A stretch of 64,000 nt of DNA, taken from Psammoneis japonica. Its lineage: Eukaryota. Made by a program: the position numbers and the translations under genes. The stretch is taken from assembly GCA_008632985.1 (NCBI GenBank), contig QPGO01000114.1, positions 62,001 through 126,000 on the forward strand, written 5' to 3'. This document shows positions 24,616-56,238 of the stretch, one piece after another. Every line of letters starts with the position of its first letter. The first letter of the stretch is position 1. The notes under the pieces were generated by a model, which was not told where the DNA came from, searched no databases, and saw nothing but the letters and a program-made list of their open reading frames with translations.

Positions 24616-24939
24616 ACCGAGAGAGGGCAGTGTATCATGCGAGGGTTCTTTGGTTTTGCTGGGTTCGGTTGAGTATGCTTGCGGTATCCTACTTCTGCAG
24701 CCACCATCATTCCAAGCAACCACCAAACAACGAAATACATACGCAGTTGGAATCAAGACAAGTCGAGTCTTCAATCAAGTCATTGCAAAGTCGGTCTTGA
24801 CCGGGAAACACACACACCAAACTGCCTAGATCATACTTCGAAGTAACAAAATCAAACAATGTTCACACGTATTCCTCCTTATCATCGTTCGAATTAGCTG
24901 AACGAAGCAGTGTTGGATCTCGTCGCAGCAGCAGAAACG

Positions 24940-26500
24940 TCAGCTCAACGTCCCCATGTTCACTGTGCGCGGCTTGCTGAAACGGGTACAGCTTGGTGCA
25001 ACCATCCCTCGATGCAAAGTGCCTGGGTGATGTTCCAGCCGAGCCTCTTCATCCTTGAGAGCATTGTCATCTGGCGATGAGATTCCCTGCAGCTTGTCTT
25101 GGCGTCGCCTTTCTTGTGTGTGTGCAATCGCGACATGCAAAGGAAGGCGACCGGAAGCGTCCGAAACCCTGCACGCCTCGGGAAATTTCGAAAGAAGAGA
25201 GGGGTCTGGCGAGCTCCCGTTGATGTTAGTCGGGTTACCTGTCACTCCTGCAGGAAAACTCTGGTGACATTCTCGTCGACTGGCAGCAAAATGCAGTGGC
25301 GACCGTCCGGTCCTTGGGTCTCTGATTTTCAAGAGTTCTGGATGAGCCTCGACAGCAAGGCCAACCAAAGCCAGAGGACAAATTGACAGCGCAAGCGGAG
25401 TGAAGTGCAGGGATTTTGTTTTCAGTGGTGTCAAGTTCCACATGAACATCACCACCGTCCAGCTGCTCAAATTGGAGCAGAACCATGATTGGCAATTGCA
25501 TGTGCAGTCGATCAATCAAATCATTGCATTGGACTTTAGTCACTTGACAAGCACTCATTTCAAGAAGTTTGCCTTTGCTCAAACATCGCCTCGAAACTTG
25601 TGTCTTTCCATGAACAATGCAGTGATGAAACATCACCAAGAGACATTGAGTGGAAGGCCAGATGAGTTGGTGACAAATTGAACCCACATCAAGTCCAATG
25701 GAAGAGGTCTTTTACATCTGGCACATTCACACATCTTGGCTCTTCTTCCACCAAGAGCTGCCTTGTGACAGCAATTGAGGCATTGAATGCAGCTGCAATG
25801 ATGTGTGGAGGCATCTCACAATGATGACACATCACCACTTTGTGGCACAAGTTGACTCCCTTGGCCCTGCTTGCTTCAATGAGAAGTTGTGCCATTTCAA
25901 ACCCCCTTCCACAGAGAATGGCACATGCCAGGGGACTTGTTGGAACGCCATCACCATGTGGAAAATCTGGTTGGGTGAAGTGGCAGTTTTGGATTGAAAG
26001 TGACATGTTCAAGGCAGTCTTCAAAGCACTGTGACAGATCATCGATTTTGCTTCAGAAGCAGGAGCTGCGCCATTCCACAAAGGAATTTCCTGTTTGCAC
26101 CTCCTTCCAACAGGATTGTCTTCCAGTCTGGGGACAAGCAGAAGTGGAGTCAAAGGTGCATTGCTGTCTGCATCAATTTGCAAGACACAGCATGGATGTT
26201 GCCTGACCATGTGCTTGAAAGCCCTCTTGTTGGCACTGCTTGCTGCTTGGCCAAGATTGAAACCTTGGACAATGCTGCCCACCATGTGATGCAGTGCTGG
26301 AAGTCTTCCCAGCTCATCTTTTCCAGCAAACATGATGGTGCAGGGCAGGCACATCTCTTTACAAACAACAAGTGTTTTGAGGGTGGTTGGCTGCCACTGT
26401 TTTTGGCTTGAATTCTGCCACACAGCTCATGTTTTGCATCATTTTTCCTGAATTTCACAGTGCTTTGCCATGGTGAAAACATCAAGCCACAAGTCTGTGA
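24940..26500 (-). pseudogene. Ankyrin-like repeat gene, TpA-converted
   Basis: AHPELLKIRDPRTGRSPLHFAA, FPEACRVSDASGRLPLHVAI, DELGRLPALH. AHPE stands where AYPE is typical; almost no TA dinucleotides. Confidence 0.6.
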
Positions 26501-26812
26501 CAGATGTGGTCCATCTCCAAACTCTCATTTGTGTCATGTTCTTTGTGCATCAAAGATCTCATGCACATGAAAAGTTTGAGGACCACAAGCTGTGTTTTTG
26601 AGAAACATCAATGATTGTCATCATGGTTGTGCTTTGATCGTGGTGAATGATGTTCTCATTTTGGACTTCATGGGCAATCTCGTCCAAACAACAAGAGTGT
26701 TGTTTGCATTCAAAAATGGACACCAACAAACAACCTCACTTGAATGCCAAGGTGATTTTAGGACAAACATGAGGATGACCCCCCTTGAGAGGCACAACAA
26801 TTGTGCCACAAA

Positions 26813-27112
26813 TGTCGCGGAACATGACTCAGGCGGGACTCAGATGATTGGGTCCCGTTCACGAATGAAGAGTCACGTGATTTCTGGTCACAAGAATCAC
26901 GGCGAACCGGGATGTTTGCGATCCAGGGACGATGGTCCCCCGTGATGTTTGACGTGACGTTTGGACGTGTTACTTTGAGTTTGACAGGACTGTAATTCAG
27001 AAGAAGTAGAAAAGTAGATTATAATTTAGCGAGAGAAAAGTGAAGACCATTAATTTTAGTTTTGTGTGCTGCTGACAAGGTGTTAGTAGCATCGGCATCT
27101 GGTTGTCCAACA
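26813..27112 (+). repeat. 5' LTR (300 bp)
   Basis: TGTCGCGG...CCAACA; aligns to 32245-32548 with 8 substitutions and one 4-bp indel. Confidence 0.95.
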
Positions 27113-27171
27113 CGATATATGTCGACAGTTTGTGGCAACACTACATTCGAGAGTAGTAAGTGAGAGAAGCG

Positions 27172-28233
27172 ATGAGCAAGGAAGAACAGACCTACGAGAC
27201 TTCTTTGTCGTGGAGCGGCAAGAGAGAAGACTTCGAGATTTTTTTGGTGAAATTCGAGGCGTTCGAGAGCGACCACGGTTGTGACGAAGCAACCGATGTG
27301 GATCTAGGAGATAAGCTTCTCACCAAGGCGGAATACGTGAATGGAAAGAAGAAAGTAACGCAAGCTAATGGTACAGAGACCGAAGAAGACCTCACAAAGG
27401 AGGACAAGAGGTTGTACAAGCTGAATGCGAAATCATTTTCGAAGATCATCCGTGCGTTGCCTGAAAACTTGATCAAGGCCTGCAAGAACCAAGGTGGACC
27501 CAAGAAGTCCGTTTATTTGATCAAGGAGTATCTCAAGAAACACTACTCGGAGCAGAATGTGGTAGATGATTACCAAAACCTCTACAAGAAGAGGTTGGAG
27601 CTAGAACCTGGAGAGTTCGAGATAGCGCTGTTCTATTTCAACGAGTTGGAGGATATTAACTCCAAGTTGGGAAAGATTGATGAAAAGTATCGCTTAGACG
27701 AGCTTCAGTTGAAGACTGATATCTATTCAAAAGTCCCGGATCAAGGTAACTGGTCCTCTTTCAAGTCCGAGTATCGCAAGGACGGCGCGATGGAGAACAT
27801 TGCCTACAGTGCGTTCAAGCAGCACTATGAACGGGAGTGGAAAGCTCATGGTCCACCAGGAGGATCTACTACATCTATAGATCGATCTTCTGGAGAGGAT
27901 AAGACCCTAACTATGAAGGTACAGGGCAGCAAGTTTTTCCCGGGTAATTGTGGGAAGTGTGGCAAGAAAGGTCACAAGTCAAAATTTTGTCCTGACAAGA
28001 AGAACGCCAAGACGAAGAAATTCGATGGCGATTGCTTTTATTGCGGCAAGCATGGACATAGAGGGAGCGACTGCTTCAAGAAGAAGAAGGATGAAAAGGA
28101 GAAAGACGAAGAAACGAACGAGGTTACACTCGGAGTGTTCGATTCCGTCGACTTGGTTGAGGAGGGTAAGGACCCTATTCCAGACTCCTTCTTCGATACC
28201 TTCGATACTAAGCCCTGCAGTTCGAGACGATGA
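27172..28233 (+). CDS. gag: Gag with two CCHC zinc knuckles
   Basis: CGKCGKKGHKSKFC and CFYCGKHGHRGSDC. Intact ORF with normal Tyr content (15 Y). Confidence 0.9.
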   Translation: MSKEEQTYETSLSWSGKREDFEIFLVKFEAFESDHGCDEATDVDLGDKLLTKAEYVNGKKKVTQANGTETEEDLTKEDKRLYKLNAKSFSKIIRALPENLIKACKNQGGPKKSVYLIKEYLKKHYSEQNVVDDYQNLYKKRLELEPGEFEIALFYFNELEDINSKLGKIDEKYRLDELQLKTDIYSKVPDQGNWSSFKSEYRKDGAMENIAYSAFKQHYEREWKAHGPPGGSTTSIDRSSGEDKTLTMKVQGSKFFPGNCGKCGKKGHKSKFCPDKKNAKTKKFDGDCFYCGKHGHRGSDCFKKKKDEKEKDEETNEVTLGVFDSVDLVEEGKDPIPDSFFDTFDTKPCSSRR

Positions 28234-31200
28234 GTTCGAGAGAGAGCTTAAGAGGTGGGATACTCGGTCTGGACTGGGTTACGGCTACGATAGTAGCGGC
28301 GAACGCGCGCTGTCATGGTACGAATGGAGCGAGATGGCGGACGATGAGGACGAAGAAGACGATGACGGCATGAGTATGCCGGAGCTAGAAGGTCCTTTTA
28401 TTTCAGATAAGGTCGAGGATGAAAGTATCCCGCCCTTGGAACCGCGATATGATTCCGACAGCGATTCGGATGATGACGAGTCATTGGAGCTGATCGGCTC
28501 TCAACGCAAGTGCACCAACTGTGACGGGCCTGGACATGTCTATCGAGGCTATCGCACAACGAAGAAAGTTCAAGACGAGGACAAGGGAGACGAGGAAGAC
28601 AGTATCCCGCCCTTAGTATCTCGTGGCGGTTATGATAGCGACTCGAGCGATGACGAGTCGGTTGAATTCGAGGTTGTTTGCTCGTATTGCGGACAGCCTG
28701 GACACGAATTCTGCACTCCTTTCCAAGAGTTTTGGAATAACCCGGATGAAGAGAGCGATGATGACAGTATTCCGACTCTAGAGAGTGGTATGGACTCGGA
28801 TAGTGATTCAGAGTCCGAGTTTGATTACGATTCGGACGACGACTATGACGAAACACTGATGTCCGGTGCGCAGTATGAACCAGAACGTGGCGGTGTAAGG
28901 CTACTATTGGACTCTGGCTCGACAGCACATACTAAGAGGTCTGGTGAAGGGATGCGGAACCTCAAGGAAGTGAACAAAGTCATGAAGGACGCACACGACG
29001 GGAGTTCGATAGAGAAGCTCCAAGGAGATTTTCCATTTACGCGTCAGAATGGGGACGGTACAGTAGTTATTACTGAGATGTACGTCCAGCCAAATTTTTC
29101 ACATAACATTGTGAGTCTGACGAAGCTATTTGAGAAAAATTGCAAGCTGAGTCCGAAGACTGATCCCAAACGAGCCATTGTTCTCGAGTGCCCTGATGGC
29201 ACGGAATTAATTTTCGAAAAATCAGCGAAAGATGGGCTGTTTTATATGGAAGTTGACTCGCTGACGGATGTGTCCGAAATGACCGCAGACGTTTCTGATG
29301 GACAGAAAGCTGGACAAAAAGAGTCGGACAAGAAAGTCCATGTGAACCGCGCACACATTTTGCTGAACCACATGGGAGAACGCGCGATGAAAATGGCGGC
29401 AGCAGATCTCGGTTGGAAATTGACCGGCATACCCAAGACCTGCGAGTTCTGTGTCAAGGCAAAGGCTACAGCAAAGCCAACCGTGAAGGCTAGCGATAAG
29501 AAAGCAACCAAGCCTGGTCAGCGGCTCTGCCCAGACACGTCAGGACCATGCAAAGCGACGCGCGGCAAGAATCGATGTCATGCGATGACAGTCGATCAAC
29601 TTACAGATCGACTTTGGTCGATGTTCCAAGCAAAGAAAAATGGTTTTACGGACGATGTCAAAGCTTTGTTGACTAAGCTGAAGGGTCAGGGGTGCCCAGT
29701 CGAGTTCTCACAGATCGACAACGCTCCGGAGTGGGGTGCACTCAAGCCAATTTGTGATGAGCATGGGATCACGATCGAGCACACCTCCCCGAATGCTCTG
29801 CAGTTCAACGCGGCAGTCGAGAGAGCGTTCCCAACAGTGCGCAATGTGGCGTGCGCGGTGCTGAAAGCATCCGATTTCGACGACGCAGAGCAAAGTCGGC
29901 AGTGGGCGAATGCGCTGCAGCGCTGCACTGTCGTTCGTAACTTGGTCCCACGTGGGGACTGGAGCCGAAGACCTGGTAGAGTTTGGCGCAAAGGGGTGGA
30001 TGGCCAAGAGAAACAAGATCAAGGCCAAGTTTCAAGATCGTGCCGAGGAGGTTCGTCGCGTGGGATGCACTGAGAATCACTCGAGCGACACGTGTGTCGT
30101 TCAAAAGTTGTCCAATCGTCGTTGTGTGTTGACACGCAACGTGGCATGGGAGTCTAAAAGACGACATGATCACCTAGACCCCGAGACAGTGGTCGAAAAG
30201 CAAACTCCGCGAGTGACTTGGGCGGACGACGCAAGACCGTCAACAGTGGTTGAAGAGATGTCACGCCCCTCTCAGTCATCCGCAGATGACCCCGACTTTC
30301 ATGATTCTCATTCACAAATTGAGGAGGGAGAAGAGAGTGCAACAGACGGCGAGGAACCAACGGATGGCGAAGAAAGTGACTCCGAGATGGGTGTGCCACC
30401 TGATGGACCAGGACAGACGGATGAAGAATCAGCTGTGAACAGTCGATTGGAGTGCGAGTTGAGCAAGCTGAGGACTTCTTGTGACCCAGCTGGTCTCCCA
30501 AGCAACGACGAGGACGAGGCAGAAGCGGTGAATGTGGTCGCAGGACATGTTGATCCTGAGAATGATCGCGAAGCGATGACAGGCAACGAAGCTGACGAGT
30601 GGCGGAAGGGTCCAGTCACAGAGTGCGATGGATTTTTCGACTTGAGAACTTGGACACTGGTCAAGGAAGCCGAATTGAAAGGCAAAAAGACATCCAAGCC
30701 GCTGTCAACGAAGAACGTCTGCAAAAAGAAGTTACACGCGACAACAAAAGAGGTGCGGCATCGCGTGCGCAACTGCACTCGGGGGTTCGATGTGACACCC
30801 GGAGTTCATTTCGATGAATCTTTTGCACCTGCTCCGACGGATCACACTGTGAGACTCATGTTGGCGATGTCATTGTGGATGCTGGAACAGTTGGAAGTCG
30901 ATGATGTTGACGAAGCCGAGAAGGAGTGGATTGTCGGGCATTTGTTCGATGTTGTGCAGGCATTTCTGAACTCAGAGATGACTGGACCACCTGTGCATGT
31001 GCATCTTCCCCCTGTGTGGAAGGAGTGTTGCGAACACAAAGGTTGGGAGTGCAACGAGAACGATCTTGTTTTGCTCGGAAAGGCGCAATGTGGGCAAGTC
31101 GATGCCGCGAAGCACTGGATTGATGTGTTTGTCAGAATCATGACTGAAAAGGGCGGCGTCGAGCTTAAACGAAGCAAGACTGACCCTTGTGTGTTGCACC

Positions 31201-32244
31201 GTCATGATGACAAGGGGCAGTTGGAGACTGTCATTTTGATTTGTGTGGACGATGGTTTCATGTGTGGGAAGCCGGAAGTCGTCAAGGAAGCCAAGGACCA
31301 TCTGGCGAAGAGAGTTAAGATGCTGGACATTGGACGAATCGACACTCATTTGGGAATTGATTGTGAGTTGAAGAAAGACGAACACGGTTGGTGCTTCGAG
31401 TGCAGCACGCGCAAGTGCGTGGAAAAGATGGTTGCGGAGTGCGAACAAGGCTTCAACAAGACACTTGAGGATTGCGAGACACCTGGGGAGCCAGGGAAGA
31501 CATTGATGAAGGCGGACGAAGACCATGAGCCAGTCGAGCAAAACGGATGTCGAGCCTTCGTCGGAAAGATCCTGCATGCGATGTTGAAGGTCTTGCCTGA
31601 TTGCGCGAATGCGATTAGAGCGCTGACAATGCATTTGACGGATCCAACTGGGGATCACTGGCACGCGCTGGACAGACTTGTGGGACATCTGAAATTTCAC
31701 TGTCAGCCGTTGAAGTTGAGGTCACCTTTGGAATTAAGGAGCACAGGGATGTTCGACGCTGAGTGGGGGACGGACAAGAATGACAGAAAGAGCATTTCGA
31801 GTGACATTTCCACACTGGGCGGTGCGTCGTTGACCAATTGGCAATCGAAGAAGCAGACCTCTGTGGCGCTGAGCAGTTGTGAAAGTGAGACCATGGCGGG
31901 CACGGTGTGCGCGCAGAGCATGCAATTCCAGAATCATTTTGTTGGAAGAGCTGGTGGGTGCGGACATGTTGAAGATGCCGAGTCACGCGGTGCGGAGACA
32001 ACGCCGCATCACTGTTTCTGGCTGTCAACAACCAAGTGGGACAGCGGACGAAACACACTCACATTCGTGACAGATGTTTGGGCGAGTTGGTTCAACGTGG
32101 AGAAATTGAACCACGTCATGTCAGTGCGGAGAAGAACCCGGCAGATGTCAACACCAAGAACGCGAAGATCGAAACGCACAAGAGACTAGCTCAGAACCTG
32201 CACGACGGATTCGTGATGGTTGAACTTGAACCAATCAAGGAGGG
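28221..32244 (+). pseudogene. pol: Pol (protease, integrase, RT, RNase H), hypermutated and frameshifted
   Basis: PR LLLDSGSTAH; IN H-x4-H..CEFC, RLCPDTSGP, QFNAAVERAF; RT FDVVQAFLNS, KAQCGQ, ILICVDD; RH DAEWGTD..DRKSIS, WQSKKQTSVALSSCESE, RTKH. Frame changes at ~29960 and ~31940. Confidence 0.93.
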
Positions 32245-32548
32245 TGTCGCGGAACATGACTCAGGCGGGACTCAGATGATTGGGTCCCGTTCACGAATGA
32301 AGAGTCGCGTGATTTCTGGTCACAAGAATCACGGCGAACCGGGATGTTTGCGATCCAGGGACGATGGTCCCCCGTGATGTTTGACGTGACGTTTGGACGT
32401 GTTGCTTTGAGTTTGACAGGACTGTAATTCAGAAGAAGTAGAAAAGCAGATTGTAATTTTGCGAGAGTGAGAAAAGTGAAGACCATTGATTTTAGTTTTG
32501 TGTGCTGCTGACAAGGTGTCAGCAGCATCGGCATCTGGTTGTCCAACA
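32245..32548 (+). repeat. 3' LTR (304 bp)
   Basis: Preceded by a polypurine tract; matches the 5' LTR. Confidence 0.95.
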
Positions 32549-32639
32549 CACAAACTTGGTTGTTGTTTGTTTGCTGATGTTGAAGACAAGTGTGGTGCAC
32601 ATGAATTTAATTCTTGCACTGCAGAGCTTGCACACAGAA

Positions 32640-35300
32640 TTCTGCAGGGCCAATGTCACATGGAGTCCCACCCACTGGGACTGGAACATGTCTGGTGCTG
32701 TCCTGTTAATCTGGAGCTGGGAATTTCAAATCTCTCTCTTTTCTGGCATGGATGAAGTGACTTCTTGGCACCACAACTGCACCAGATGGGCCTTGTGCAA
32801 TGCTCAGCCACAAAACTCTCACATTGTTCCTTGGCGGGTCACACCACGGTGTCCTTTCACTCTTGAGTTGAGAGCTTCAAGTCTTGCTGTTTTTCTGGTG
32901 GGGACAGAGTGATTTGGTGACAAAGTTGCACCAAATGAGCCACATGAAGTGGCTCAGCCAAAATTCTTGAGGTGTTCCCTGGGTTCCAAGAGCCCCCCCC
33001 CCCCCCCCCCAACACCCTCTGCCTGCAGTTGTTGAGTTGGTTGGCCACATCAGAGCTCCAAGTCTCATCCTGAGTGACTGGAGGGCACAGCTGCGCCAGA
33101 GGGAGGAGCCTTGAATCACTCAGCTGTCATTGTCACAGCATTCCCTGTGCACGACCAGAGACCATCAATGCCCTCAGCCTGCAGTTGTTGTGATGGTCAC
33201 TTGGTGGCATCAGAGTCTCCTTGCATTCTGGAGTTGGGAACTTCAACTGTCATCATGCCATGGACAAAGTGAGCGGGGTCAGCCAACCTTCTCAAAGTGT
33301 TCCCTGGGCTCCACCAGAGACCCACAATGCCCCCAGCCTGCAGCTGTTGTGTTGGTTGGTGGCATCAGAGTTTCCTTGCACTCTGGACTTGGGAGCTCTT
33401 TGTCAACTCTCATCCTGGCATGGATGAAGCAACTGGGGGGCACAGCAGCTGCTCAAGAGTGCCTTGCAACACTCACACATCACTCTCAAAGTGTTCCCTG
33501 GGCATGACCAGAGACCCTCAATGCCCTCAGCCTGCATCAGTCATTGTGTTGGTTGGTGGCACCAGGGCATCCTTGCTCTCAAGAGTTGGAAATTTGTTTG
33601 GCTCTCATTCTGACAGGGATGAAGCAACTGGGGGGCACAACTGTGCCAGGTGAGCCTTGCAACACTTGGCTGCCATTCTCAAAGTGTTTTTCCCTGGGCT
33701 CCACCAGATGTCCTCAATGCCCTCAGTCTGCAGTTGTTGTGTTGGTTGGCAGCATCAGGATGTTCTTTCACTCTGGAGTGTTGATGGGAACTCAAGCTCA
33801 TCTCATTCTGCTGGTGTGGGTGAAGAGACTGGGGCCACAGCTGTGCCAGATGGGCTTTGCAACACTCAACTCATCGCACTCAAAAAGTGTTCCTCTGGCT
33901 TCACAAAGAGACCCTCAGTGTTCCCAGCTTGCATTGGTTGTGTTGGTTGGTCACATTGCAGGGTGTCCTTTTGTTCTGGGACTTGGGAATTTTGGCTCTA
34001 ATTTTTGTGTAGATCAAGTGACCAGAGGCCACAACTGCACCAGGTGAGTCTTGCAACACTCAACCACCATTCTCAAATTGTTCCCTGTGCTCCACCAGAG
34101 ACCTTCAATGCCCTCAGCCTGCAATTGTTGAGTTGGATGGTGGTGCAACTGTGTCCTTTCACTCTGGAGTTGGAACCTCAACTCTCATCCTGGCATGGGG
34201 AAAAAGTGACTGGGCGCAAACTCCACCAGACCAGCCTTGCAAAACTCAGCCACCACTGCCACCCCCCAAAGCATTCCCTGGATTTCACCAAAGACCTGCA
34301 GTCCCTCAGCCTGCATTTGTTTGGTTGATTCTTGGCAGTGTCAGAGCATTCACTCACTCTTGAGTGTGGAGCCTTGTCTCAGCTGTCACTCTGGTGTGGA
34401 TGAAGCAACTGGTGGGGGGCACAGCTGCACCACATGACTTGTGGAACACTCAACCACCATTCTCACAGTGCTTCCTGGGTTCCACAAGAGATCCAAAATG
34501 CCCTTGGCCCACAGCTGTTGCTTGCATTGATTGATGGCATCATGGTGTCCTTTCACTCTGGAGTTGGGAGCTTCAACTCTCATCACCTGGAATGGGGATG
34601 AAGTGGCTGGGGACCAAAGTTGTGCCAGATCTGCACAGATTTGCAAGCACGTGTCATGCAAGACATGACATGAACAACTTGGGTGCACCAGCTTCAATCA
34701 GGTGAGAAACATGTCACTGAATGCAAACAAACAAGGGCAAAATGGATTTGGGCAGCTGCATGTTCCACAAACAGGTGCGTGTCAGGCATGTCAATTGTTG
34801 CATTTAAGTTGGAAAATGAAAAACAACACGAACATGTTGGGGGGCAGCATTCGGGTGAACGATGAATGTGGGCATGTGCAAATGAATTAAAAAGGTGGGG
34901 CAACAATGAGAGACCATGCAAATCAACAAGTGAAGGGGACGACGGAACATGCAAAGAAGTGCGCCCAACAGTTGACAGTGGGGGATGACATGACCTGTGA
35001 TTCATGTGGCTCTTTTGCCTCTCTGATGGCCCAGCTCTCACTCTGATGTGAGTGAAGCAACTGTGGGAGCCACAACTGCTGTGCACCACATGAGTTGTGG
35101 AACATGCAACCACCATTCTCAAAGTGCTCCCTTGGTCCCGCCAGAGACCAAAAATGCACTCAGCCTGCATTTGTTGTGTTGATTGGTGATTGGCGGCATC
35201 ATGGCATCCCTTCACTCTGGAGTTGGGAGCTTCAACTCTCTCATCTCCTGGCATGGGGTTGAAGTGACTGGCAGCCAAAGCTGTGCCAGACAAGCCTTGC
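32640..35300. repeat. Degenerate tandem array of ~160-200 bp units (>=10 copies), TA- and CG-depleted
   Basis: Recurring ccctcagcctgcagttgttgtgttggttgg..cactctggagttggga..ggatgaagcaactgggg..caaccaccattctcaaagtg at ~33175, 33335, 33528, 33725, 33925, 34115, 34307 and 35161. Confidence 0.8.
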
Positions 35301-36244
35301 ATGAAAGGAGGAAAGAGAAGCAGCTCAGGAGCATGCCACTCTCTGGATTGCAGCACAACTTGAGATCAAGTCTCAGCTCAAGAGGAGCCTTGAGCAAATC
35401 AGTCAGAGAGAAAGTGTGGCCGTGCTTTGGCACAACAAAAAGACTGCCTGTGGGGCTTTTGTGCCAACTCTTCAAATGCAAGGGCTTGCTGGTGCTTGCT
35501 GTGTGAGAAGAGTGACTCATGATGAGGCACATCAGTGCCCAATGACAGTTGCTGCAGCTCTCTGGCTGGGGTGTTGTGCTGGGTGGCACACATGACTCTG
35601 CCCACTTTGTGGAGCACCAGCACATGCAAAGCTGGTGGTGTGTCTGCGCCCACTTGGCATGCTGGATGGCACACACTCAACCTGCACAGACACACAGATG
35701 TGGCACTGAGACAGCAAAAAAAAAGTCTCTGCTGGAGTCCACAACCTTCCAAGACATGGCTGGAAAGATTGAACAAAAAAGCAGTGTTTGGTCAACTGTC
35801 AGAAAAGATCTTGTGAGATTGGCCTCTTGGCGGTGACCGTGATGCCAAGCACCTCAGCAAGGAAGTCCCCTCTGCCACTTGGTGCCTCTCGCATGCAGTG
35901 ACAGGTTCAGCCACTCAGATCCTGCTCCCCCCCTCCAAGTGCCAAGCTCCCACAAAACATGAAAAGAGTCCACAGCGGCATTGGCGCAGGCACTGTGCCC
36001 GCCCGCCCGCCCGTCCGTCCATCCGTCCGTTGAGAACATTCGTGACGAGCGTAGTATGTCTTGCATCGCGATTGGGAACAGATTGCAAGCACCGTAGTCC
36101 GACTACCGTACAAAAGGATACAGAACTATGCGCTCTCTTCATTGTTCGTTTGAACGCATTTCTGAAAGCAAGATGATTTATAAGCATTACGCATTCTTCT
36201 TCTAAAACAACATTACACAGAACTGACTCCACCACTGCGGCAGT

Positions 36245-43899: not shown

Positions 43900-45560
43900 G
43901 CTGGTCCCGTCCCAATGCGCTACCTTTGGCTTTACGAACTTGGAGATCGACGAAGCGCCTGCCTTTGAGTCCGGAATCAGCAAACACGCACCAGCCGGTG
44001 TAACCTACCACATCCGCGTATACTCACTTCTCGCCGTTTTTGAAGCGGGTGGCAACTGGCGTTTGCTTCGAAGCAACGCCCTTGAAGTCCTCTCTCTCTG
44101 CGTCGCGCCATTCATCGTTTTCGAGCACCGCGCCGTGAGGCGGAGCTGCCGACTGGTCCGCCATCACGTGGTCTAACTCATCTGCATGTTTGGTCCATAC
44201 AAAGCAACAAACAAACAAGGATCAGAAGCAAACAAAAAGAAAAAACAAAATAAAGCCATAAAACTTACTGTCCCGAACATGGACTCCCGCCCTCGTCGCA
44301 CCAGTGCTCTCGTTTTCGAGCACCGCGCCGTGAGGCGGAGCTGCCGACTGGTCCGCCATCACGTGGTCTAACTCATCTGCATGTTTTGTCCATAAAAAGC
44401 AACAAACAAACAAACAAGGACCAGAAGCAAACAAAAAGAAAAAAAAAAACAAAATAAAGCCATAAAACTTACTGTCCCGAACATCGACTCCCACCTTCGC
44501 ACCAATATTCTCGAGATGGGGCATCATGGTTCTCATGAACAAGAAATGAGACTCCTGCAGAGCCCGCAAACCAGCAAGCGTGTGCCCGTCAGTTTCATCG
44601 ACTTTTCCCCATCACCTTCGTGCCAGTTTCATTGACTTTTTTCACCAGCTCTTCATGGTGACAGTCGGCATCAACTCCCATCCCCGCAAGCTGGCCGCTC
44701 AGATTGCGGACACTGCTGTCAAGCTGGCCACCTGTTTTGTCCAATTCCTTCTTCACCACTTTTTGCACTGACCCAATGAGAATGCGAGCATCGGGAGACA
44801 GGTTCACAGACCTGTCCGTGGTGGAAGAGCTGGCTGCAGATGCCGGAGACACAAGTTGGTCTGTCTCCTTCCATGTCTCCCCCACATTTGCCGCAACGAC
44901 AAAGGGATCAAAATTGAGTTCACCCATTTGAATTATTTCCTCCAGCTTTTGAAGAAAACTGCACAGGCATCAGTGAAGCATTCAGATTTTTCTTTCACAC
45001 AAAGGTCAGCAATGAGGGTTCCACACCCCACAAAGGTGGAAAAAAGAGTTAAGAACTTGCACCAGGTTTTGATGACACTTGGGGTGCAAGTTGCCCAAAC
45101 AAAGTTTTTCTTTCACATGAACAAATGCAAGCACAGATGCAATGTTAAGCAAGCCCACTTTGTCATTCATTGCAACAGCTGGGCAGTGGTCATCAGCTGA
45201 CAACAGGCTGCAGGGAGCAGCTTCATTGAGTTGGATGAGCCACTCCTGCTTTTTTTCCATCCTCACACTGCACGAGCGCTTGACCTCTCTCTCCTGTTTT
45301 GCAAAGATCTTTGAGTTTCTCAATTTTCTCCATGACAAAGTGCTCACTTGCTTGAGTGGGCTTGTTTTCTTTGACCAATGCATTGGCGAAGCACATCAGC
45401 ATGGCACAAAATCCAGCACAAGGCTCGTCTGGCAGGAGCTCCAGCTGGTTGAGCCCTTCCAGCACCACGGAGCAGTCAACTTTGACAGAAGCAGCCTTTG
45501 TGGTGTTGTTGTTTGATGTGTTGTCAGTTGAATGCATCTGGCAGGTGATTGCAGATTCTG
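43900..45560 (-). pseudogene. Hypothetical protein; 5' part TpA-converted, 3' part not
   Basis: Protein-like ORF pieces 45223-45591, 45006-45383, 44595-44927 and 44222-44569 are collinear on the minus strand. No family recognised. Confidence 0.4.
44115..44492. repeat. Tandem duplication, period 195 bp, covering one intron-exon unit of a minus-strand gene
   Basis: tcgttttcgagcaccgcgccgtgaggcggagc...aaaacttactgtcccgaacat at 44115 and 44310. On the minus strand each copy has GTAAGT...GCAG. Confidence 0.9.
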
Positions 45561-48500
45561 TGGTGAACACAGGCAGCAAGGCAGGGGACAAACAAAAAGG
45601 TCAGCATGAAAGCACTGACAACAATCATGACATGAGCGGCAAGTCGAGAACGCAATGAAACATGCACAGGATGGACATGAAACAAATGCCTTTGGCATGG
45701 ACACATGGATGAAGTTAATCCAGCACCACTGGTTTTTTGGTTGCTGCCCACCATGTCTTCCATGAGTCTCGTTTTGTCGACGCTGTTCTGACACAACAAT
45801 TTGCCTGCCTTTGTCGCAGACAGTCAAAAGTGTTTGTCAAGAGCACACAATGCAACACGCAGTTGCTGTGGCTCCTCTGCTGGATTGCTGTCAATGATCA
45901 ATGAGCTGCTCTCTGCTCTGCTCTCAAGCTCTGGCTCTGCATTCTGCGTTCTGCCGTGTGTCGATCTGTCCCAACAAAAAATTTTGAATCATTTCGATTT
46001 TTTCACTTTCCCCCTTAATTTCCCTTTTTCGATCCATTTTCACAGTTTTGCTTGATTTGCCTTTCTTTTTAGTCTGTTTTTATCTGATGCAGAAAATTGC
46101 CACCCGATTCCAAAAAATGCTGCTCTCCCGCAAAGACTCGCAATGAACCCGCCTGGCCACGCAAGATCCAATCCAGTCTGTAAGTGGCGCGGAAGAGGGA
46201 AAGAGAAGACCTCCCACAGATCGTAGCTGACACATTGCTGTGCCACCAGGCTAACTGGCAAAGCTTGAAAAAATCGCCCCGTGCAATTTTTTTGGTTCCT
46301 GGTGCAAAAACGAGAAATTCTGCACAGAATTTGTGCAGCCACCATGGCAAATTTGTGTTGTGCCCACCGTCGTTGTCAACATTTTGCAAAATGTGAGTCA
46401 CTTGGGATGTTGTCGGCATTTGTCTGCAGTGCCATCATGTGTTGGCGCAATTTTGACAAGCGTCGCTCTGTGCAAGAATGTTGATTTTGACTTGTTCAGT
46501 GTGTGAGTCTGCTGCTGTTGTTGTCGTTTTGGCATGTTTTGTCAAGTTTGTTGTTGTTTCCCTCCTTTCATCCTGTGACTTGTGCCTCAATCATTTCACA
46601 ACACATGTGGATAAAAGGGGCTGATGTGTGGGGCACCTTTGGAGTGTTTGAAACGAGCTCTGGATGTCGGCACGTGTTTGGTGTGTTTCCAACACACATT
46701 GGCAGTCCGGCACTCACTCTGCTTGTTTCTTGGTCCACAAGCAGATTCTTCCCTGCTGCAAAATGGCCTGATGTTTTACTTTGTTGAACATGTTGACGAC
46801 ACTGGCTGTGGTGCTTGTGGATCACATGCATGCAGGGATTTTGAGTTCTCTGCCAAACTTCATGGCATCTTTTTTTAATTTCTCATGGTGGTGTCAGCAA
46901 GACCTTAAAAGGCATCTGTCTCTTGAAGGATGCCTTTGCGGGTTGCAACAATGGCGTTCTCAATTCATGGTGGATCAGTTGGTTTCAAGGAATGCAGGTG
47001 GGAAAGTCTGGGACATTGGAGTGAGCCAAATCCATCAGCATGATGCTGAGCTCAGTCAAGGTGCAGCAGTGGATCAAAACCTTTCCCGGGACCTTTGCCG
47101 ATTGGGGCGTCATTTGGATTTTTGCCGTTTGCTTTCTAACTGCTGATGCTGCAGTGGAGTTTTCAAATGTGCTTGCAATTCTGACGGCGCACGTGGTGGC
47201 CCACCTCCAGACCAAGGCAAGCTGCACGTCACATGCTGTTGTTGTCGGAGGTGCAAAGCAGCGCGCAACTGGCCGGGTTTTTGTCACACAGCGCACTCCA
47301 TTCGATGAGCAGTGTCAATTTTTTGCATCTGCTCAAAGTCACCTTGGAATTGAGCTGGTGTCTTTTCACAGTTTTGTCACAATTCTTTGAAACACTGGGC
47401 TCAGCTCTTTGTTTGTTCTGTCATCTCATTGACCTCTTTTTGACAAGCTTTTGACTTCAGCCCCAGAGGCCCCCCAGACTGCAAGCATGGTGTTGAGGAG
47501 GTGTCGACTCCTTGCACCGGGTTTCCCGAATTGAGAGAATGCAAAATCTTGTCACACTTCACATTGGGGTGGAGGGCGGTCGTTTTGCAGTGTGGCAGGG
47601 CTGCATGATTTGTGCAAGGCACAGAGAAATTGTGCAGAAATCTGTCTGGTCTGCCGGAGTGCTTGAAACCCAAAACGCACTGTCCCAGTGAAAAATGCTT
47701 GCAAACTTTTTTCAGGATGTCCTCACAGACCCCACATGACCCACATGCATCAGGAGAAAGCTCGCAAAGAGCTCTTCAAGATGAATTGTGTCTCATGTTA
47801 AATGGACATCTCTGGGATGCTTTGACCTTCTCTCAAAGTGTTGGGATTTCCCAAGTGACAACAACTGTTGCTTGTTGAATGGCGACAGATTTTTTGTGTT
47901 CTGATGAGCATGCACACATTGTGGCATCTTGATGCACATGACGACATTTCTCTCTTAGAGCTTGCAATGTTTGCACAAACTTGCATGTCGCGCAAATGCT
48001 TGAGGACAAAAAGTTGTTGCCAATTTGCATGGGATCTGAGGGTCTCACCATGACGAAACTCAAAAATTGACTTTCGTCATGTCACACAGCAGAGTGTCCT
48101 GTGTGAAGTGACGAAAGCCAATTTTTGATTTTGTCTTTCATTCTTGAGATTTTGCATGTGCAAAAAAGGTTCACAAATTTTTTCAATGGGACGGCAGGAT
48201 GCACAGATGCAGAGCCTCATGGCTGCACCATTTCGGAGCTGTTGGGGGTTGGCATTCATTTTGCCATTTTGTGAGTCTCGTCATGTGCTTTTCTCATGGT
48301 GTTGTCTGGAGTCAACAGTGCAGCTGTGTTGGAAGTCGAACAAAAGTGCACGCTTGCAAATGGAGCCAACATTGCGGCCGCGGAAGTCAAGCTCAACTCT
48401 CTGAGGATAGACTGGCACTTTGATTTGCCACAGCCAGACTGCTTTCTCATGCCGACAGAACACTGGCTCCGGCATCAAGAGGTCCAAGGAGTTGGGGGCA

Positions 48501-50696
48501 CACCACGGGAGCTCAAGCGCAGTCACAGCCACAAAGGAGGCACAACTGCACAGGAAGAATTGGAGGGAGTTGATGCAGCGCAACTGTGTTTTGATCTGAC
48601 TCCAGCAAATCACAACAAATGCTGAGTCTGCTGATGAGGCACACAAGACCAGCCACACAAAAAGGCGCCAATGGGCGCTCTCGAGCTCCCAAAATGTTCA
48701 TTGAGAAAAAGCATGCTGAGCGCAATCACATGACAAACAACCGTTCTTAACGTGCAAACACACTTTGCAACAAATTGTTTTGACCATTGAAACATTTTGC
48801 TGGCCTCCATTCATTGGGAAATGGGAATTGATGAACAACACATGCATGGCTAAAAAGTGCTCAACGAGAGCTTTTGGTCGGTGTCCACACCTGAAAATCA
48901 ACCATTCAAGCCATTTCAAGCTCCGTCAGTGCCTTTTCATGTGGCCAGTCTTGCATGAAGGTTTTGATGTTCCGAGAATGCCAGATGAATTTGAGAAGAC
49001 ATGTGGGCTTCTTGTGCCATTCGCCTGCATCAAAACCCATCGAAAAACTTTGGAGTGAATCACTGTGTTGATGGCGAGATGGCTGCCTCCTGATGGCAGT
49101 GTCCTCCTGCACCCAGAAATTTTGTTTTCAAAGACAGGCATGGTCTGTGATCCCAACTTGATTCAACATGTGTTTCAGAGCACCAAAACCACCAGCTCCT
49201 TCAAGATCTCTGTTGTGGATGCTTTTTGATGTTGGCCTGCTGGCCATTCCTCTTCTTTGTTGGATGCATTTGCAAGTGGTTCTTTTCCATTTTCCATTCC
49301 TTGGACAGTCGGTGGCATTCTGTGTGCAACTGCACTTCCAGGCAGATTGAACAAGAGGCAAGCACTTGAAAGCAAAACAGTGGGGGTGGGCAGTTGCAAA
49401 ATTCTGAACGCTTCACCAAGACCTCCTCTTTGCCCTTTCACCACTCTGGGGCTCACACGTTGTGCTCAACTTGGGTGCAAGGGTGCTTGTCAGCTTGCCC
49501 ACTGGGAGCCTTGGGCAGCTGCAGGTCTGGGCCAAAACAAATGCCAAGATTGGCCTTTGTGAACCTTTGAGCACATCATTGCCAATGAAGCTGCTTTGAG
49601 TGAGTCCGCTGCAATCCAATCATGACTTTGAGACAGCTTGACTGCACACTGATGCTGTCGCAGGACTTGATTGAAGTGTGGCTTCAATCCATTTGCTTTC
49701 AGCACCTGCAGCAATTGCCTGCATTGCAATGAAAAAGAAGATCTCTGTGGAAAACTCCATGTGTTGCACAAAAAAATGATCTCGGACATGCTGAGAATGG
49801 CGCAGTGTCGTCAGCAAAAACTGACACGACAAACATGCAGCCAAGTTGCTGTTGAAACTCTCCATCTCCGTCCCGCAGAGCCACTCTCTCTGCAGCGCCG
49901 GTGGCTCTGGGGAGAGAGAGAGAGAGAGAGAGGCAGACAGATGTTCTGATCTTTGGCAGACCAGAGGGAGAGCATCGTGGAGCCAGCTGGCTTTGCTGCC
50001 AGAGATGCCCTCTAGAGTGGAGAGCAGTGGAGAGCAGCCACTCTCTGCTCCAGAGAGTGGCTCTCTGCCGGCAGCTAGAGAGTTGCTCTAGAGAGTGGCT
50101 CTCGAGCTAGAGAGCAGCTGCTGCTGCTCTCTGCTGCAGCAGAGAGAGTGGACAGTCGAGTGAAGCAGGGCACTGCAGAACAAGCGACGGCGACGCGGCC
50201 GCATGCATGACGCACGCAACGAAAATCTCAAACTGCGCAACGCACGCACGCGACGCATCCATCATCATCAGGAATGCTGCGAATTGCTGGACAATTGCGC
50301 GATTCACGTGCCCGGACAATGATTGTTGCTTCAGGCACGAAATTCGAGCTTCGCGCACATGGAGACCATAGAAAATGTGCCAACGTTCGAGAATGTCCGA
50401 TTTGTGTAGATCACGTGTGACAGCACCACGCAGGTCATTTAAAGAAATTACAACGACGACTCATGCGACTGCAATGAGATTTTAATGCCACAAGCTGTGT
50501 AGAATGGACATCTGCGCGAAGGGAGATTGTTGCTTCGGGCAACGATGTTCGACCTTCGGGCACATGAATCGTGCAATTGTTTGGCAATTCGTGCAGTGGT
50601 GACAACGATGAGAGTCCTTGTCCGAGGAGTCGTCCACACCGCAAACATTTTCATGTCCTTTTCAAGTCCTTTTCACATCATGCTTCTACAAGCAAA

Positions 50697-51830
50697 ATGG
50701 CCAACAAAATGACAGCACGAGACGACGACGAAGATGAGGCCTTGTTCAACATGGATGTCACCATGGCTGTGGTGGCCAAAAAGAGGGGCCCAAAAAAGGA
50801 AAAGAGGAGGAAACAACTCATTGACACAACGCCGACTGTGCATGAGCGAAAAGCAGAAAAGGAAGAACAAAAGGTCTCCAATCAAGCCTTTCGTGATTTT
50901 CTGCAGGGAGCTGTGGTGTGTGGTCTGTGTTTGACTCTCCCCACCTTGTTGGGGTTCACAGCAAGATTTCCCAAATTGCTTCAACAACGACATGCCGGCC
51001 TGGTTCTGGAAGAGCCACAAGATGCACTGGAAGTTGAGAGCTGCCATGCATGCCATTGCAACATGGCGAGTGACTGTCGCACTGTGGCGAGTGGCCATCT
51101 GTGCACAAGCTGGGGACACACAAGTTGGTGCTTGCCAGATTCTGCTTCAGAGGAACAAGAAGACTTGGTTGCACACTCAACACGACTTCTGCCGCATCGG
51201 ATGCCATGCTGGTTTCCATTCTGAGCTTGTCCATGGCGGTCATTTGGATTTTGCTTGTGCACGCTCTCATTCCGCAATGCGGCACTTGGAGAGTTCATCA
51301 AGACTTGAAGCCTTGGTGCGAAGCAAGTTGATGCACTTGCTTTCAAGCTCTTGTTTGCCAACACCCAAGAGCAGTGAGGATGATCAAATGAATCGTGAAT
51401 TTCCTCACGAATCTCTGCCGCCTCTCCCATTTGACGCGAAAGAAGAAAAGAGAAACAAGCCGAATCCAGAACCAGCTTCGGAGTTGGATGATCAAGACTG
51501 GATTGTCTCTCTCAGCCGCAGTGCCAGTCGATCCTCCCTTTTGGCCTTGGGGCATGACCTTGATGACGAAGCGAACAAGGATGATGGTAAAACACAGAGC
51601 GACTCTCACAAACGACATCAAGACAAACCAAAAACTCGTTTGTTTGCTGCGCCACGACATGCCACAGCCATCTTTCGATTGGGGTGCAGCGCTGCTGCAT
51701 GCACATGTGCTTTGCTTTGGTTTCGAAACGCCAGCTTTTGGCCTCCGCACGCAGGGGGAAACATGGGACAATCGACTCGTAATTGTTGGGATTTAAGAGG
51801 GGGCTTTGGCGGTGATGTTGCGGTGCAGAC
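50697..51830 (+). pseudogene. TLC-domain (LAG1/ceramide synthase-like) gene, TpA-converted and truncated
   Basis: PRHATAIFRLGCSAAACTCALLWFRNASFWPPHAGG..STRNCWDL, with H/C at positions where Y is expected; N-terminal TM segments. Confidence 0.55.
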
Positions 51831-52366
51831 TCTTCAGTCGTGATCCGTTTGCATGACAACGGACCAGCAGCAGTTGGGCGAATGCAGCAGTTGTTCCCGC
51901 CGGTGGAAAACAATGTGTCAAGCATGAAACAAGAAACGCAGCACCAGCACAAAATGTTTGCGGTCAAGAACTCAGAACAAGAGGCAGAATCCTCGGCTGA
52001 AGAAGAAGAAGACCAGGTCTTCAGATGAAGAGCTCTTTCAATTGAAGCACCCTCATCAAAAGAGCAAGACTGAGTCGACTGGAGCAATCCTGAAGCAGCA
52101 ACAACGACACTCCTCCAACTCCACAGGCACCCTTCTGGCTCCGACAACGATGAACTCATCTTTCTTCTGATGCCCGCAGCAATGATGATGTGTCCGCTTT
52201 CCAGTCGAGATGACTGTGCCGCTGCGCAAAGGTCACTCAATGCAAGCAAGCTCCGCCCATTGTGAGTCACAGTCCTTCCACACGTGTTCGTGTGCACTGT
52301 GCTCATGAAGCTGCGGCTGCTCGACACTGCAGCAGGAATCGGGTGAATGCCAAAAGCATTGGTTGT

Positions 52367-52490
52367 TCAATCCATCAACCCCACAATGGCGTCAAGGATT
52401 TTGTCGCGAGTTTTGTTGCTCTTGTTGCGCTCAAAGGGTGTCTCACCCAAGACGAGTTCCAAGGTGAGCACGCCAAGCGACTGCAAATTC
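52367..52490 (-). pseudogene. Ser/Thr protein kinase fragment (subdomains IX-X)
   Basis: LQSLGVLTLELVLGETPF...TRDKIL resembles DxWSLGVLxYELxxGxxPF. Confidence 0.5.
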
Positions 52491-52879
52491 CTTGCAGTGA
52501 GCATTTGGAGACTTGTTGGTGGTGCTCGACATCGCATTCCAAGACGAGATGGAGGTGGGTCGAATCCTGAAAGCAGCCACAACAATCCAGAATGAGCGGA
52601 TGATTGAGACTGCATGTTCAACACAGCAGCAGAAGAGGGGGGTGGGGGGCATGACAGGAGTGAGGAAGAAGGCATTCTGCAACTACACTGCCCTCCACAA
52701 TGGCTCCGGGACAAACACCAAGTTTCGCAGTTTCGTGACGACGGTGACAACGACACTCACCGACAATGAATTTCCATTTCCTGCGTGGAATTGCGGGTCA
52801 TTTATGAGCAGCTTTTGTTTGCAGAGTTGCTCAATGGCAACCGCTTGGTGCGTTGGAGATCGTGCCGCAAGTGTGGACT

Positions 52880-53410
52880 TCCCCTTGCCACGGAAACTGA
52901 GCCGAGCAGGAATCAGAGGACCCCTTTTTGGTCAAGCTGACTTCATCACACCCAAAGGATGCAATGATCACTTGGGTGTGCTTGCCGTGTCTTGCTTTGG
53001 TTGTGAAGAACCAGCTGCAATGCACAAAGCCGAGAATGACGATTGTTCCAAACTCATGTGTCAAACCGTTTTGTTGGAGTCTTTGCGGAACACTTGCACC
53101 GACAGATGCATGTCGATTTGTGGGGCAATGCCAAGGACAAAAAGCTCGACGAGGCGGACTTGTTGAAGATCACACACGATGGGATTCGTCCTGCTCCAGG
53201 ACGCCAGTCACAACAGGATCACATGGAAAACACAACAATGTGGAGCACGATCAAGGCGAAGGAGTTGGCGGGCATTGAATTGAGCGAATCTCTCAGCACA
53301 GTGCAAGCAAGTCCTGTGTCGGCCTTGGCATTTGCCCACCCTGAATCTCAGTGCTTTGCGGTGGGACAGGTTTTGGCAAGGATCAAGTCGAAAGCCACTC
53401 AAAGAGGAAG
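52880..53410 (+). pseudogene. METH: B12-dependent methionine synthase, C-terminal activation domain fragment, TpA-converted
   Basis: ADFITPKG.NDHLG..AVSCFG, NDDCSKLM, FAEHLHRQM..DLWG, HDGIRPAPG..SQQDH, GIELSES..SPVSAL.FAHPESQCFAVG, KDQVE match MetH motifs, with Y>C/H. Confidence 0.85.
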
Positions 53411-53499
53411 GGTCTTGAGCTCGGCGTTGCCGAAAGATGGCTGTCTCCAGCATTGAACTGCCGGGTGCGAACGTGCTGCAGTGGACCATGCAGAAAATG

Positions 53500-55848: not shown

Positions 55849-56238
55849 GTGAGTGGTGACAACGATGTCCCCACAGCTCACCCCGAAGTCATTGATCTCA
55901 CGGGAACCGACAACGAAGTCATTGATCTCACCGAAGCCGACAACGACGTTGTTGATCTCACTGAAAGCGATGACCAAGAGGACAAAAGAGAACAAGAAGC
56001 GACGGAAACCAGACAAATGACGTTGGTTCTCTCCGCTGGAGTGTTTGTTGTGATCTGTGCCAACTTTCATTGTGGATGGTTTTTGTTGCGTGGAGTGGCG
56101 GTTTCATGTCCTTTTTGCCATGCAAAGTGGGCTCTCTTGCGCTCCAATGTCATTGCGCATTCCGTGGCGTCTAGCGGCAACTGTTGGGACCGGGGTTTCA
56201 TGCCGGCATTGCAGCCGACCACCCGAGTCCAAAATTGA
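55849..56238 (+). pseudogene. Fragment with three tandem SIM-like motifs and a Cys cluster
   Basis: EVIDLTG, EVIDLTE, DVVDLTE (30-bp period), then CANFHC..CPFC. Confidence 0.4.

Follow-up and report, generated by a model that had tools for sequence, protein, structure and literature searches.

The 64,000-nucleotide stretch of DNA analyzed here (positions 62,001 to 126,000 of contig QPGO01000114.1, Psammoneis japonica; hereafter the window, whose own coordinates are used throughout) carries a Ty1/copia-type long terminal repeat (LTR) retrotransposon at 26813-32549. Our subject is the 3' half of that element, in which most TA dinucleotides have been replaced by TG or CA, together with the TA-poor tracts that lie elsewhere in the window. 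The features that bear on the argument are collected in Table 1.

Table 1. Features of the retrotransposon and of the TA-poor DNA in the window
Feature	Position	Strand	Evidence
Left flank of the insertion, 3.7 TA/kb, CpG-poor	24900..26812	.	composition
Target-site duplication, left copy, ACAAA	26808..26812	.	read directly from the sequence
5' LTR, 301 bp, starts with TG, not hypermutated, 11 TA	26813..27113	+	self-BLAST, 96% identity to 32245-32549
Gag open reading frame, 357 aa, CCHC knuckles, TA density normal	27160..28233	+	Pfam zf-CCHC, E 7.8e-4, below curated cut-off
Protease/integrase frame, tyrosines cease after ~29520	27917..30073	+	Pfam Pol_BBD, E 5.4e-5, below cut-off
TA-poor tract within the element, internal part 4.8 TA/kb, 3' LTR 13.1 TA/kb, CpG undepleted	29520..32549	.	
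Reverse transcriptase/RNase H frame, containing the tyrosine-free frame 29910-32189	29865..32189	+	Pfam RVT_2, E 3.2e-21
3' LTR, 305 bp, TG (3) or CA (3) at six of the 11 positions where the 5' LTR has TA	32245..32549	+	
Target-site duplication, right copy, ACAAA	32550..32554	.	read directly from the sequence
Right flank, 1.7 TA/kb, CpG 9.4/kb (strongly poor), diverged tandem repeats at 33073-35300	32550..36050	.	
Second TA-poor block, 15.2 kb, 3.2 TA/kb, sharp edges at 44506 and 59701	44510..59700	.	
MetH (methionine synthase) activation-domain fragment, in two frames	52501..53456	+	Pfam Met_synt_B12, E 8.8e-28; aligned to 2o2k/9ssp
93-bp tandem array, 10.5 copies, 85% match	53859..54822	.	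some columns alternate between TG and CA
DUF4116 gene fragment on the border of the second block, 89% identity with 192-486	59372..59667	+	

The copia element and its tyrosine-free frame

The two LTRs are 96% identical by self-BLAST and by alignment; they stand in direct orientation and are bounded by a short target-site duplication. A copia-type reverse transcriptase (RT) domain, which scores 76.5 bits against a cut-off of 31.6, lies downstream of the gag, protease, and integrase regions, and no integrase domain was detected by Pfam in the element at an E value of 0.001. Judged by its RVT_2 match, the open reading frame (ORF) at 29910-32189 is the RT/RNase H portion of this Ty1/copia-type element. 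The RT frame is offset relative to the integrase frame near 29964. At 29963-29965 paralogous contigs hold 38 additional letters, at the point of the shift between the integrase frame (to 30073) and the RT frame (from 29865), and this coincidence suggests that the polyprotein of the present copy is interrupted near 29964. The element is evidently multi-copy, since 938 contigs of run X1 (a single sample) match 24900-36100 at 80% identity or more; among the samples listed as carrying it there was none of RNA.

The RT/RNase H ORF encodes 759 residues without a single tyrosine, with 29 cysteines and 33 histidines, whereas Gag (27160-28233) has 15 tyrosines, 9 cysteines, and 7 histidines in 357 residues. 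The change falls within one reading frame: the protease/integrase frame, taken from 27950 to 30073, has 13 tyrosines in the 523 residues ahead of position 29520 and none in the 185 beyond it. Among the best 150 representative relatives of the Pol protein the median tyrosine content is 3.61%, which predicts ~27 tyrosines for 759 residues, and only one of the 150 falls below 1%, so a tyrosine-free Pol lies far beyond the range of the family. In an alignment with seven homologues of 44-49% identity there are 25 columns in which at least half of the homologues have tyrosine, and at these the window has cysteine 14 times and histidine 4 times; tyrosine to cysteine is the most frequent of the 205 differences over 495 conserved columns. 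Even the tyrosine of the YVDD box of RT has become cysteine, giving ICVDDG at 31239-31256.

At the DNA level, 29520-32240 holds 13 TA sites, where ~112 would be expected at the 41.1 TA/kb of the element's own 5' half. Classified by their neighbors (R, purine; Y, pyrimidine), they comprise 8 YTAR, 3 YTAY, and 2 RTAR sites, and no RTAY site. An earlier note on this DNA, made from the letters alone, had contrasted the lack of tyrosine in the 759-residue ORF with the 15 in Gag, and both counts are exact; it had also put the surviving TA sites at about 13, with roughly 8 of them YTAR and none RTAY, which our count reproduces (13, 8, and 0, the other five being mixed). Its statement that survivors elsewhere are mostly TTAA, CTAA, or TTAG likewise holds, for 5 of the 6 TA sites in 32600-35000 (all five TTAA or CTAA) and for 13 of the 19 in 45000-50000.

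The two LTRs record conversion after integration

The LTRs of a retroelement are identical at the moment of integration, and those of the present copy now differ at eight aligned positions. Seven of these fall on TA sites of the 5' LTR, which has 11 of them and hence 22 such bases: three are TA to TG, three are TA to CA, and one is a transversion. Elsewhere there is one difference among 140 other A/T positions and none among 139 G/C positions. As the LTRs differ at TA sites even though they began identical, the conversion took place after integration, and it affected both strands. Their near-identity outside TA makes it unlikely that the 3' half was imported from a diverged copy, and it also indicates that the tract formed quickly relative to ordinary substitution. 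A crossover between two elements is argued against by the 5-bp duplication, which matches on both sides.

The extent of conversion follows the bases flanking TA

For the analysis of flanking bases, TA sites were divided into RTAY, mixed (YTAY and RTAR), and YTAR, and the tracts, 23.6 kb in all, were compared with a background of 36.6 kb of ordinary window DNA. The 79 TA sites that survive in the tracts number 2/32/45 in these three classes, against 468/792/294 in the background (χ2 73.9, p 9e-17), corresponding to survival of ~0.7% of RTAY, ~6% of mixed, and ~24% of YTAR sites. The ranking of conversion that the earlier note had predicted, with RTAY first and YTAR last, is thus the one seen. 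The note had added that the idea would fall if conversion proved independent of the flanking bases once ancestral composition was controlled, and such independence is rejected under each of three nulls. Set against the element's unmutated 5' half (29/56/14), the survivors of 29520-32240 (0/5/8) are enriched in YTAR with a Fisher p of 4.5e-4; set against the homologous Pol region in eight metagenomic relatives that are unmutated (128/175/27), with a Fisher p of 4.8e-6. Finally, if every TA in the tracts had arisen by back-mutation from TG or CA, 18/41/19 would be expected where 2/32/45 are observed (p 1e-11, all tracts).

The ten NTAN classes were then fitted by a Poisson model in which the loss rate of the adenine on each strand depends on its 3' neighbor and the two strands are additive. 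The fitted rates are 0.41 for A, 1.03 for G, 1.80 for C, and 2.97 for T; the additive model fits acceptably (goodness of fit p 0.24) and is strongly favored over a uniform rate (χ2 93.8, 3 degrees of freedom, p 3e-20). The counts thus support a rule in which TAT ≥ TAC > TAG > TAA, additive over both strands. Within the element, whose tract is young, the contrast seems stronger, with 7 YTAR sites left of ~6-13 expected, 3 of ~40 mixed, and none of ~29 RTAY, where the expectations are scaled from the counts in the element's 5' half and in the unmutated relatives. The preferred substrate had been proposed as 5'-TAY-3' on either strand, and the counts support this proposal; the preference is graded (~3-fold in the pooled fit) rather than absolute, though apparently stronger in the young tract. 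Tables of tetramer gain, with either the element's 5' half or the background as reference, were too noisy to separate an effect of position +1 from one of position -2.

Survival alone cannot separate a rule of "pyrimidine after A" from one of "purine before T", since these are mirror images on the two strands. The products do discriminate: at YTAY and RTAR sites the TAY rule predicts YTGY or RCAR, and the other rule predicts the opposite. The TAY rule is followed at 4 of 4 mixed sites of the LTRs, at 5 of 5 pyrimidine-preceded tyrosine codons of the window, at 2 of 2 codons inferred to have been Ile ATA or Val GTA, and at 2 of 3 sites in the DUF4116 pair, and, in the two TA-poor metagenomic relatives described below, at 3 of 6 tyrosine codons of L002 and 2 of 2 of L007. 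Strand choice had been predicted to go with the TAY side, and it does so at 18 of these 22 informative mixed-class sites (binomial p 0.004), 13 of 14 inside the window, the share predicted by the model being 0.76. This tally is independent of any assumption about composition. The 93-bp tandem array has two RTAR columns as well, one with CA in 8 copies and TG in 2, the other with CA in 9 and TG in 1; its copies are not independent and were left out of the tally.

TA-poor tracts in the rest of the window

Throughout the tracts the observed/expected ratio (o/e) of TA is ~0.05 and that of TG and CA 1.5-2.0, and the edges are sharp to ~100 bp. TA density is 0-11/kb in the tracts versus 23-66/kb elsewhere in the window, and it is normal in the 5' LTR (36.5/kb) and in the 5' 2.4 kb of the element (41.1/kb). 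When the DNA is cut into 1-kb windows, most of those in 25001-27000, 30001-36000, and 45001-59000 have a TA o/e of 0-0.19 and a TG/CA o/e mostly of 1.5-2.0. In the old tracts the gain of TG and CA roughly equals the loss of TA plus the loss of CG, which argues for two feeds into TG and CA there, one from TA and one from the decay of CpG. The CpG o/e is 0.06-0.15 at 33-36 kb and 0.35-0.49 at 25-27 kb, in the flanks of the insertion, and ~1.0 in the hypermutated half of the element, which suggests that the flanks are old methylated DNA and that the tract of the element is recent.

The 93-bp array has some columns that alternate between TG and CA among its copies and others that read CG, TG, or CA. 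The alternation of TG with CA points to an ancestral TA in the columns concerned, and both decay processes acted on the array after it was amplified.

Host-derived DNA lies within the second block as well. The MetH fragment appears to be a defunct, incomplete copy of a gene of the host, and conserved tyrosine positions in it are now histidine, cysteine, arginine, and alanine. The two members of the DUF4116 pair stand ~59 kb apart, the copy at 192-486 lying within an apparently intact gene and in a mildly TA-poor stretch (151-800, 12 TA/kb); one site has CA in one copy and TG in the other. In the TA-poor flank, 24900-26459 is covered by one X1 contig with one difference and a single-copy-like depth. 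The summed contig depth of the spared 5' half of the element (217-530) is like that of the mutated half (281-764), bearing in mind that contig depths are not copy numbers. As the spared half has a similar summed depth, and as a single-contig flank and host-gene fragments were converted, targeting seems not to be driven by homology, a point that contig depths can only suggest. DNA of host origin within a tract was thus converted as well.

Stop trinucleotides that contain TA number 2.7 per kb on each strand of the tracts instead of 18.1, and this scarcity accounts for the many long overlapping ORFs on both strands of 24900-36050 and 44510-59700. Gene callers would report these meaningless ORFs as proteins.

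Beside the insertion, at 26396-26769 and 32380-32753, the summed contig depth reaches 4653 and 2895, against ~69 for a neighboring single contig; it would seem that the element inserted within, or next to, a short and highly repeated sequence. Elsewhere in the window, 4808-7722 holds an SBP_bac_1 domain followed by the seven-transmembrane domain of a class C G-protein-coupled receptor (7tm_3, E 5.3e-30) in two overlapping frames, which are probably parts of a single receptor gene divided by an intron or a frameshift. A DUF6824-like ORF of the window had no usable match in the Atlas.

The same signature in related elements

Two of the ten metagenome loci that encode relatives, both among the closest, have a TA-poor Pol. 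In L002 the TA o/e is 0.05, and a stretch of 221 residues has no tyrosine, 10 cysteines, and 11 histidines; in L007 the TA o/e is 0.10, and in the remaining eight loci it is 0.35-0.63. A third case is a protein, P0016, which also lacks tyrosine and is 70% identical to L002 (it is among the best 150 representative relatives). P0016 and L002 resolve the same ancestral pair of tyrosines into different cysteine and histidine outcomes, which indicates that they were hit independently, and the occurrence of the signature in L002, L007, and P0016 means that it is not peculiar to this assembly. A scan of viral contigs returned no relatives.

In L002 (1-720) and L007 (1-500) the TA-poor part stops near the end of the match to Pol, and the rest of each contig is of intermediate TA density. 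As judged by this composition, the edges of the tracts are near or inside elements in these two loci too.

Interpretation and alternatives

The pattern is probably best explained as follows: a young copia element inserted itself into DNA that was already poor in TA and CpG, and a regional process at the DNA level then turned most of the TA sites in its 3' 3 kb into TG or CA. Each TA presents two adenines, one per strand, and A to G at either would destroy the site. With a per-strand rate set by the base 3' of the adenine (T ≥ C > G > A), RTAY sites, which are good on both strands, would vanish first, YTAR sites, poor on both, would persist, and mixed sites would mostly be edited on their TAY strand. 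Tyrosine codons, being TAY, would be prime targets and become cysteine (TGY) or histidine (CAY), the tyrosine of the YVDD box included. Under the genetic code, A-to-G and T-to-C changes cannot make TAA, TAG, or TGA from a sense codon, which is why the ORF stays open despite its many missense changes. As to mechanism, we infer that a polynucleotide deaminase, whether TadA/ADAT2-like or of another kind, turns adenine into inosine, and that position or chromatin, not sequence homology, sets the limits of the tracts.

Several observations weigh against this interpretation. The sequence reads alike whether the adenine or its paired thymine is the base attacked, and no deaminase domain was found among the 41 ORFs of the window scanned with Pfam. 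The flank rates of the two non-element blocks assume an ancestral NTAN make-up like that of the rest of the window. A strand test from composition alone is weak, 1-kb windows giving a Mann-Whitney p of 0.27 against background (a result that we weighed as neutral); products on the TAY side gain ~2-fold over the others in the element and the second block, and gains are equal in the flanking block. The pyrimidine-preceded tyrosine codons of L002 became three cysteines and three histidines, so the preference is not strict. Finally, X1 contigs differ at 1,684 places over 24900-36100, and of the 40 listed, which are a mix of CpG-type and TA-type differences among subfamilies, 17 lie in 29520-32549; at 11 of these 17 no X1 contig bears the letter of the window. 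Missing letters are to be expected if variants present in a single copy are lost from contigs when the paralogues are many (X1 contains 0.62 of the element's sampled words), yet they leave the mutated half without independent read support.

Among the alternatives the one that survives best, though we hold it to be unlikely, is that the T of TA is modified (e.g., oxidized) and mispairs, or that repair or a polymerase is error-prone at TA, in which case the preference is for a purine 5' of T. A change from A:T to G:C can indeed begin from either partner, and an A followed by Y is a T preceded by R on the other strand. Inosine, however, pairs with C at each replication and gives clean A-to-G changes, whereas oxidized thymine opposite adenine is weakly mutagenic. 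The near-pure transitions, six against one transversion at the TA sites of the LTRs and 230 of 231 de novo mutations in the alga Bigelowiella natans, as reported in a preprint (Mettrop et al., bioRxiv 10.64898/2026.01.13.699255), fit the deamination of adenine.

It is still less probable that the flank pattern reflects ancestral make-up, or new TA sites arising by ordinary G-to-A or C-to-T changes at abundant TG and CA. What can be said for this is that ancestral states are inferred for 24900-26812, 32550-36050, and 44510-59700 and that the flanking block is without asymmetry in the composition test; yet the skew survives all three nulls (the 5' half, the eight relatives, and the TG/CA tetramers of the tracts), and the strand choice at 18 of 22 sites is free of composition assumptions. 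Composition aside, the abrupt switch at ~29520 and the many paralogues would also suit a chimera, in which gene conversion or template switching brought in the 3' half and the 3' LTR from an older copy that was already hypermutated. We rate this marginally lower again: the LTRs differ at one of 279 aligned bases outside TA, as sister copies would, the target-site duplication is intact, the mutated half shows none of the CpG depletion of the old tracts, and the tract runs on without a break into the TA-poor right flank, all of which are in keeping with conversion in place.

An assembly or base-calling artefact, in which a modification at TA in heterochromatin is miscalled as G or C by a long-read caller, would account for the 11 places where X1 contigs show only the unmutated letter, and we think it very improbable. 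Contigs are known to drop rare variants, X1 contigs match the TA-poor flanks with one difference over 24900-26459 and one over 33293-34120, and unrelated metagenome contigs and a database protein carry the same signature.

ADAR enzymes act on double-stranded RNA and prefer G as the 3' neighbor of the edited adenine, whereas TAG is poorer than TAY here. Editing before integration, by an ADAR-like enzyme on the genomic RNA or a deaminase on single-stranded cDNA, is the least credible explanation of all: it would be in line with the favor of ADARs for U 5' of the edited A (as stated in 10.64898/2026.01.13.699255) and with the prevalence of sense-strand changes at tyrosine codons (14 cysteines versus 4 histidines), but the LTRs differ at TA sites in both directions, both strands were hit, and non-element DNA is equally affected (the flank 24900-26459 and the MetH and DUF4116 fragments).

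Two further candidates were ruled out. Selection against UpA in RNA does not apply to tracts that include non-coding and single-copy DNA and have sharp edges, one of them inside a gene, and intrinsically TA-poor foreign DNA is refuted by the LTR pair and by the replacement of tyrosine with cysteine or histidine at conserved positions.

Comparison with known systems

Regional conversion of TA in integrated DNA has likenesses to several mutational systems. Repeat-induced point mutation (RIP), known from Neurospora and other fungi, is likewise a regional, dinucleotide-specific process that acts after integration, ruins transposons by transitions, and is recorded in LTR pairs and paralogues. RIP turns CpA into TpA (C to T), creates stops, raises the AT content, and needs duplicated sequence. 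In the window, by contrast, TpA is destroyed (A to G), no stops arise, and GC rises; instead of an excess of TpA limited to duplicated DNA, a single-contig stretch was hit and the multi-copy 5' half of the element was spared. APOBEC3 enzymes are comparable in that deaminase-driven, context-specific hypermutation is recorded in integrated retroelements. They deaminate C in minus-strand cDNA before integration, which leads to strand-biased G-to-A changes, whereas the changes here are A:T to G:C, on both strands, and after integration. Hyper-editing by ADAR shares the A-to-G change with U or T favored 5' of the edited A. It would leave identical LTRs and sense-strand changes only, and what is found instead is LTRs that diverged after integration (three TG and three CA), histidine at four tyrosine columns, TAY favored over TAG, and non-element DNA hit.

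The context T-A-Y resembles the U33-A34-C35 loop edited by bacterial TadA, whose target A34 follows an invariant U33, the loop of bacterial tRNA-Arg being U-A-C-G. In the tracts the T at -1 is absolute, and at +1 the rates for T (2.97) and C (1.80) describe a pyrimidine and not C specifically. The eukaryotic ADAT2/3 enzyme accepts tRNAs with G, A, or C after A34, so a preference for a 3' pyrimidine is not a trait of the family. Early adenine base editors favor YAC, a preference not stated in the reviews that were checked. The likeness to TadA may therefore be taken as an analogy only.

The closest counterpart is the process described in B. natans, where mutation-accumulation lines reveal de novo changes of TpA to TpG or CpA in chromosomal DNA (Mettrop et al., bioRxiv 10.64898/2026.01.13.699255). 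The mutations already mentioned there, in two integrated viral regions, are A-to-G or T-to-C and all on TpA, and the genome has 124 clusters poor in TpA and rich in CpA+TpG, with an ADAT2 homologue as the candidate enzyme (10.64898/2026.01.13.699255). In a full-text literature search, covering diatoms and elsewhere, the same process was found described solely in this preprint, in whose main text the words "context", "flank", and "trinucleotide" do not occur (10.64898/2026.01.13.699255). As far as the preprint describes it, the process is like that of the window: TpA undergoes transitions to TpG or CpA, both strands are affected, the changes keep to regions of several kilobases, and over the long term TpA becomes depleted and CpA+TpG enriched. 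The TpA-poor genes of that alga contain more than their share of reverse-transcriptase and transposase domains. Here six of the eight LTR differences are A:T to G:C at TA, and 18 of the 25 tyrosine columns have cysteine or histidine. The clusters of B. natans are defined by a rho of TpA of at most 0.43 and of CpA+TpG of at least 1.52 over at least three consecutive 1-kb windows (10.64898/2026.01.13.699255), and clustered TpA depletion with CpA+TpG enrichment is found in most of the 1-kb windows of our tracts.

The two cases differ in other respects. The organism here is apparently another one; an 873-residue host ORF finds its best match at 41% identity in a collection of 5.8 billion proteins, host ORFs are long and uninterrupted, and the closest clusters in the Atlas belong mostly to Bacillariophyta, with one from Cercozoa. 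These diatom-like signals are weak evidence for a different organism. The target is an LTR retrotransposon with host-gene fragments and single-copy flank, whereas the preprint describes giant-virus and virophage inserts, and the TA o/e of ~0.05 is near saturation, compared with 0.45 in the B. natans nucleocytoplasmic large DNA virus region that the preprint reports. Furthermore, flank preference and strand choice have been worked out here.

The window thus offers a new instance of a process reported once before, together with a substrate rule that is new and a key of practical use in searches. What the preprint sets out is one alga, no enzyme, and no substrate rule beyond the dinucleotide. To this are added the same process on a retrotransposon in what is apparently another organism, the proof, given by the two LTRs, of its action after integration, and a quantitative flank rule that any candidate deaminase must reproduce in vitro. 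At the protein level the key is an ORF that is free of tyrosine, rich in cysteine and histidine, and free of stops, and it picked out three further hypermutated environmental relatives. The pattern points to a genome defense by DNA editing, and since such a defense disables by missense changes only, dead elements would still be predicted as intact genes. Beyond this, we would put forward, as a possibility rather than an expectation, that a natural DNA adenine editor with an intrinsic preference for 5'-T-A-Y-3' acts as a guard against silenced or invading DNA in two or more distant lineages of algae, that of the preprint's chlorarachniophyte and that of the window's host, which is probably a stramenopile, acting in tracts set by position and leaving tyrosine-free open frames as its fingerprint. 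If so, it would be a eukaryotic genome defense mechanistically distinct from RIP, APOBEC, and ADAR, and its enzyme would be the naturally evolved counterpart of the laboratory adenine base editors.

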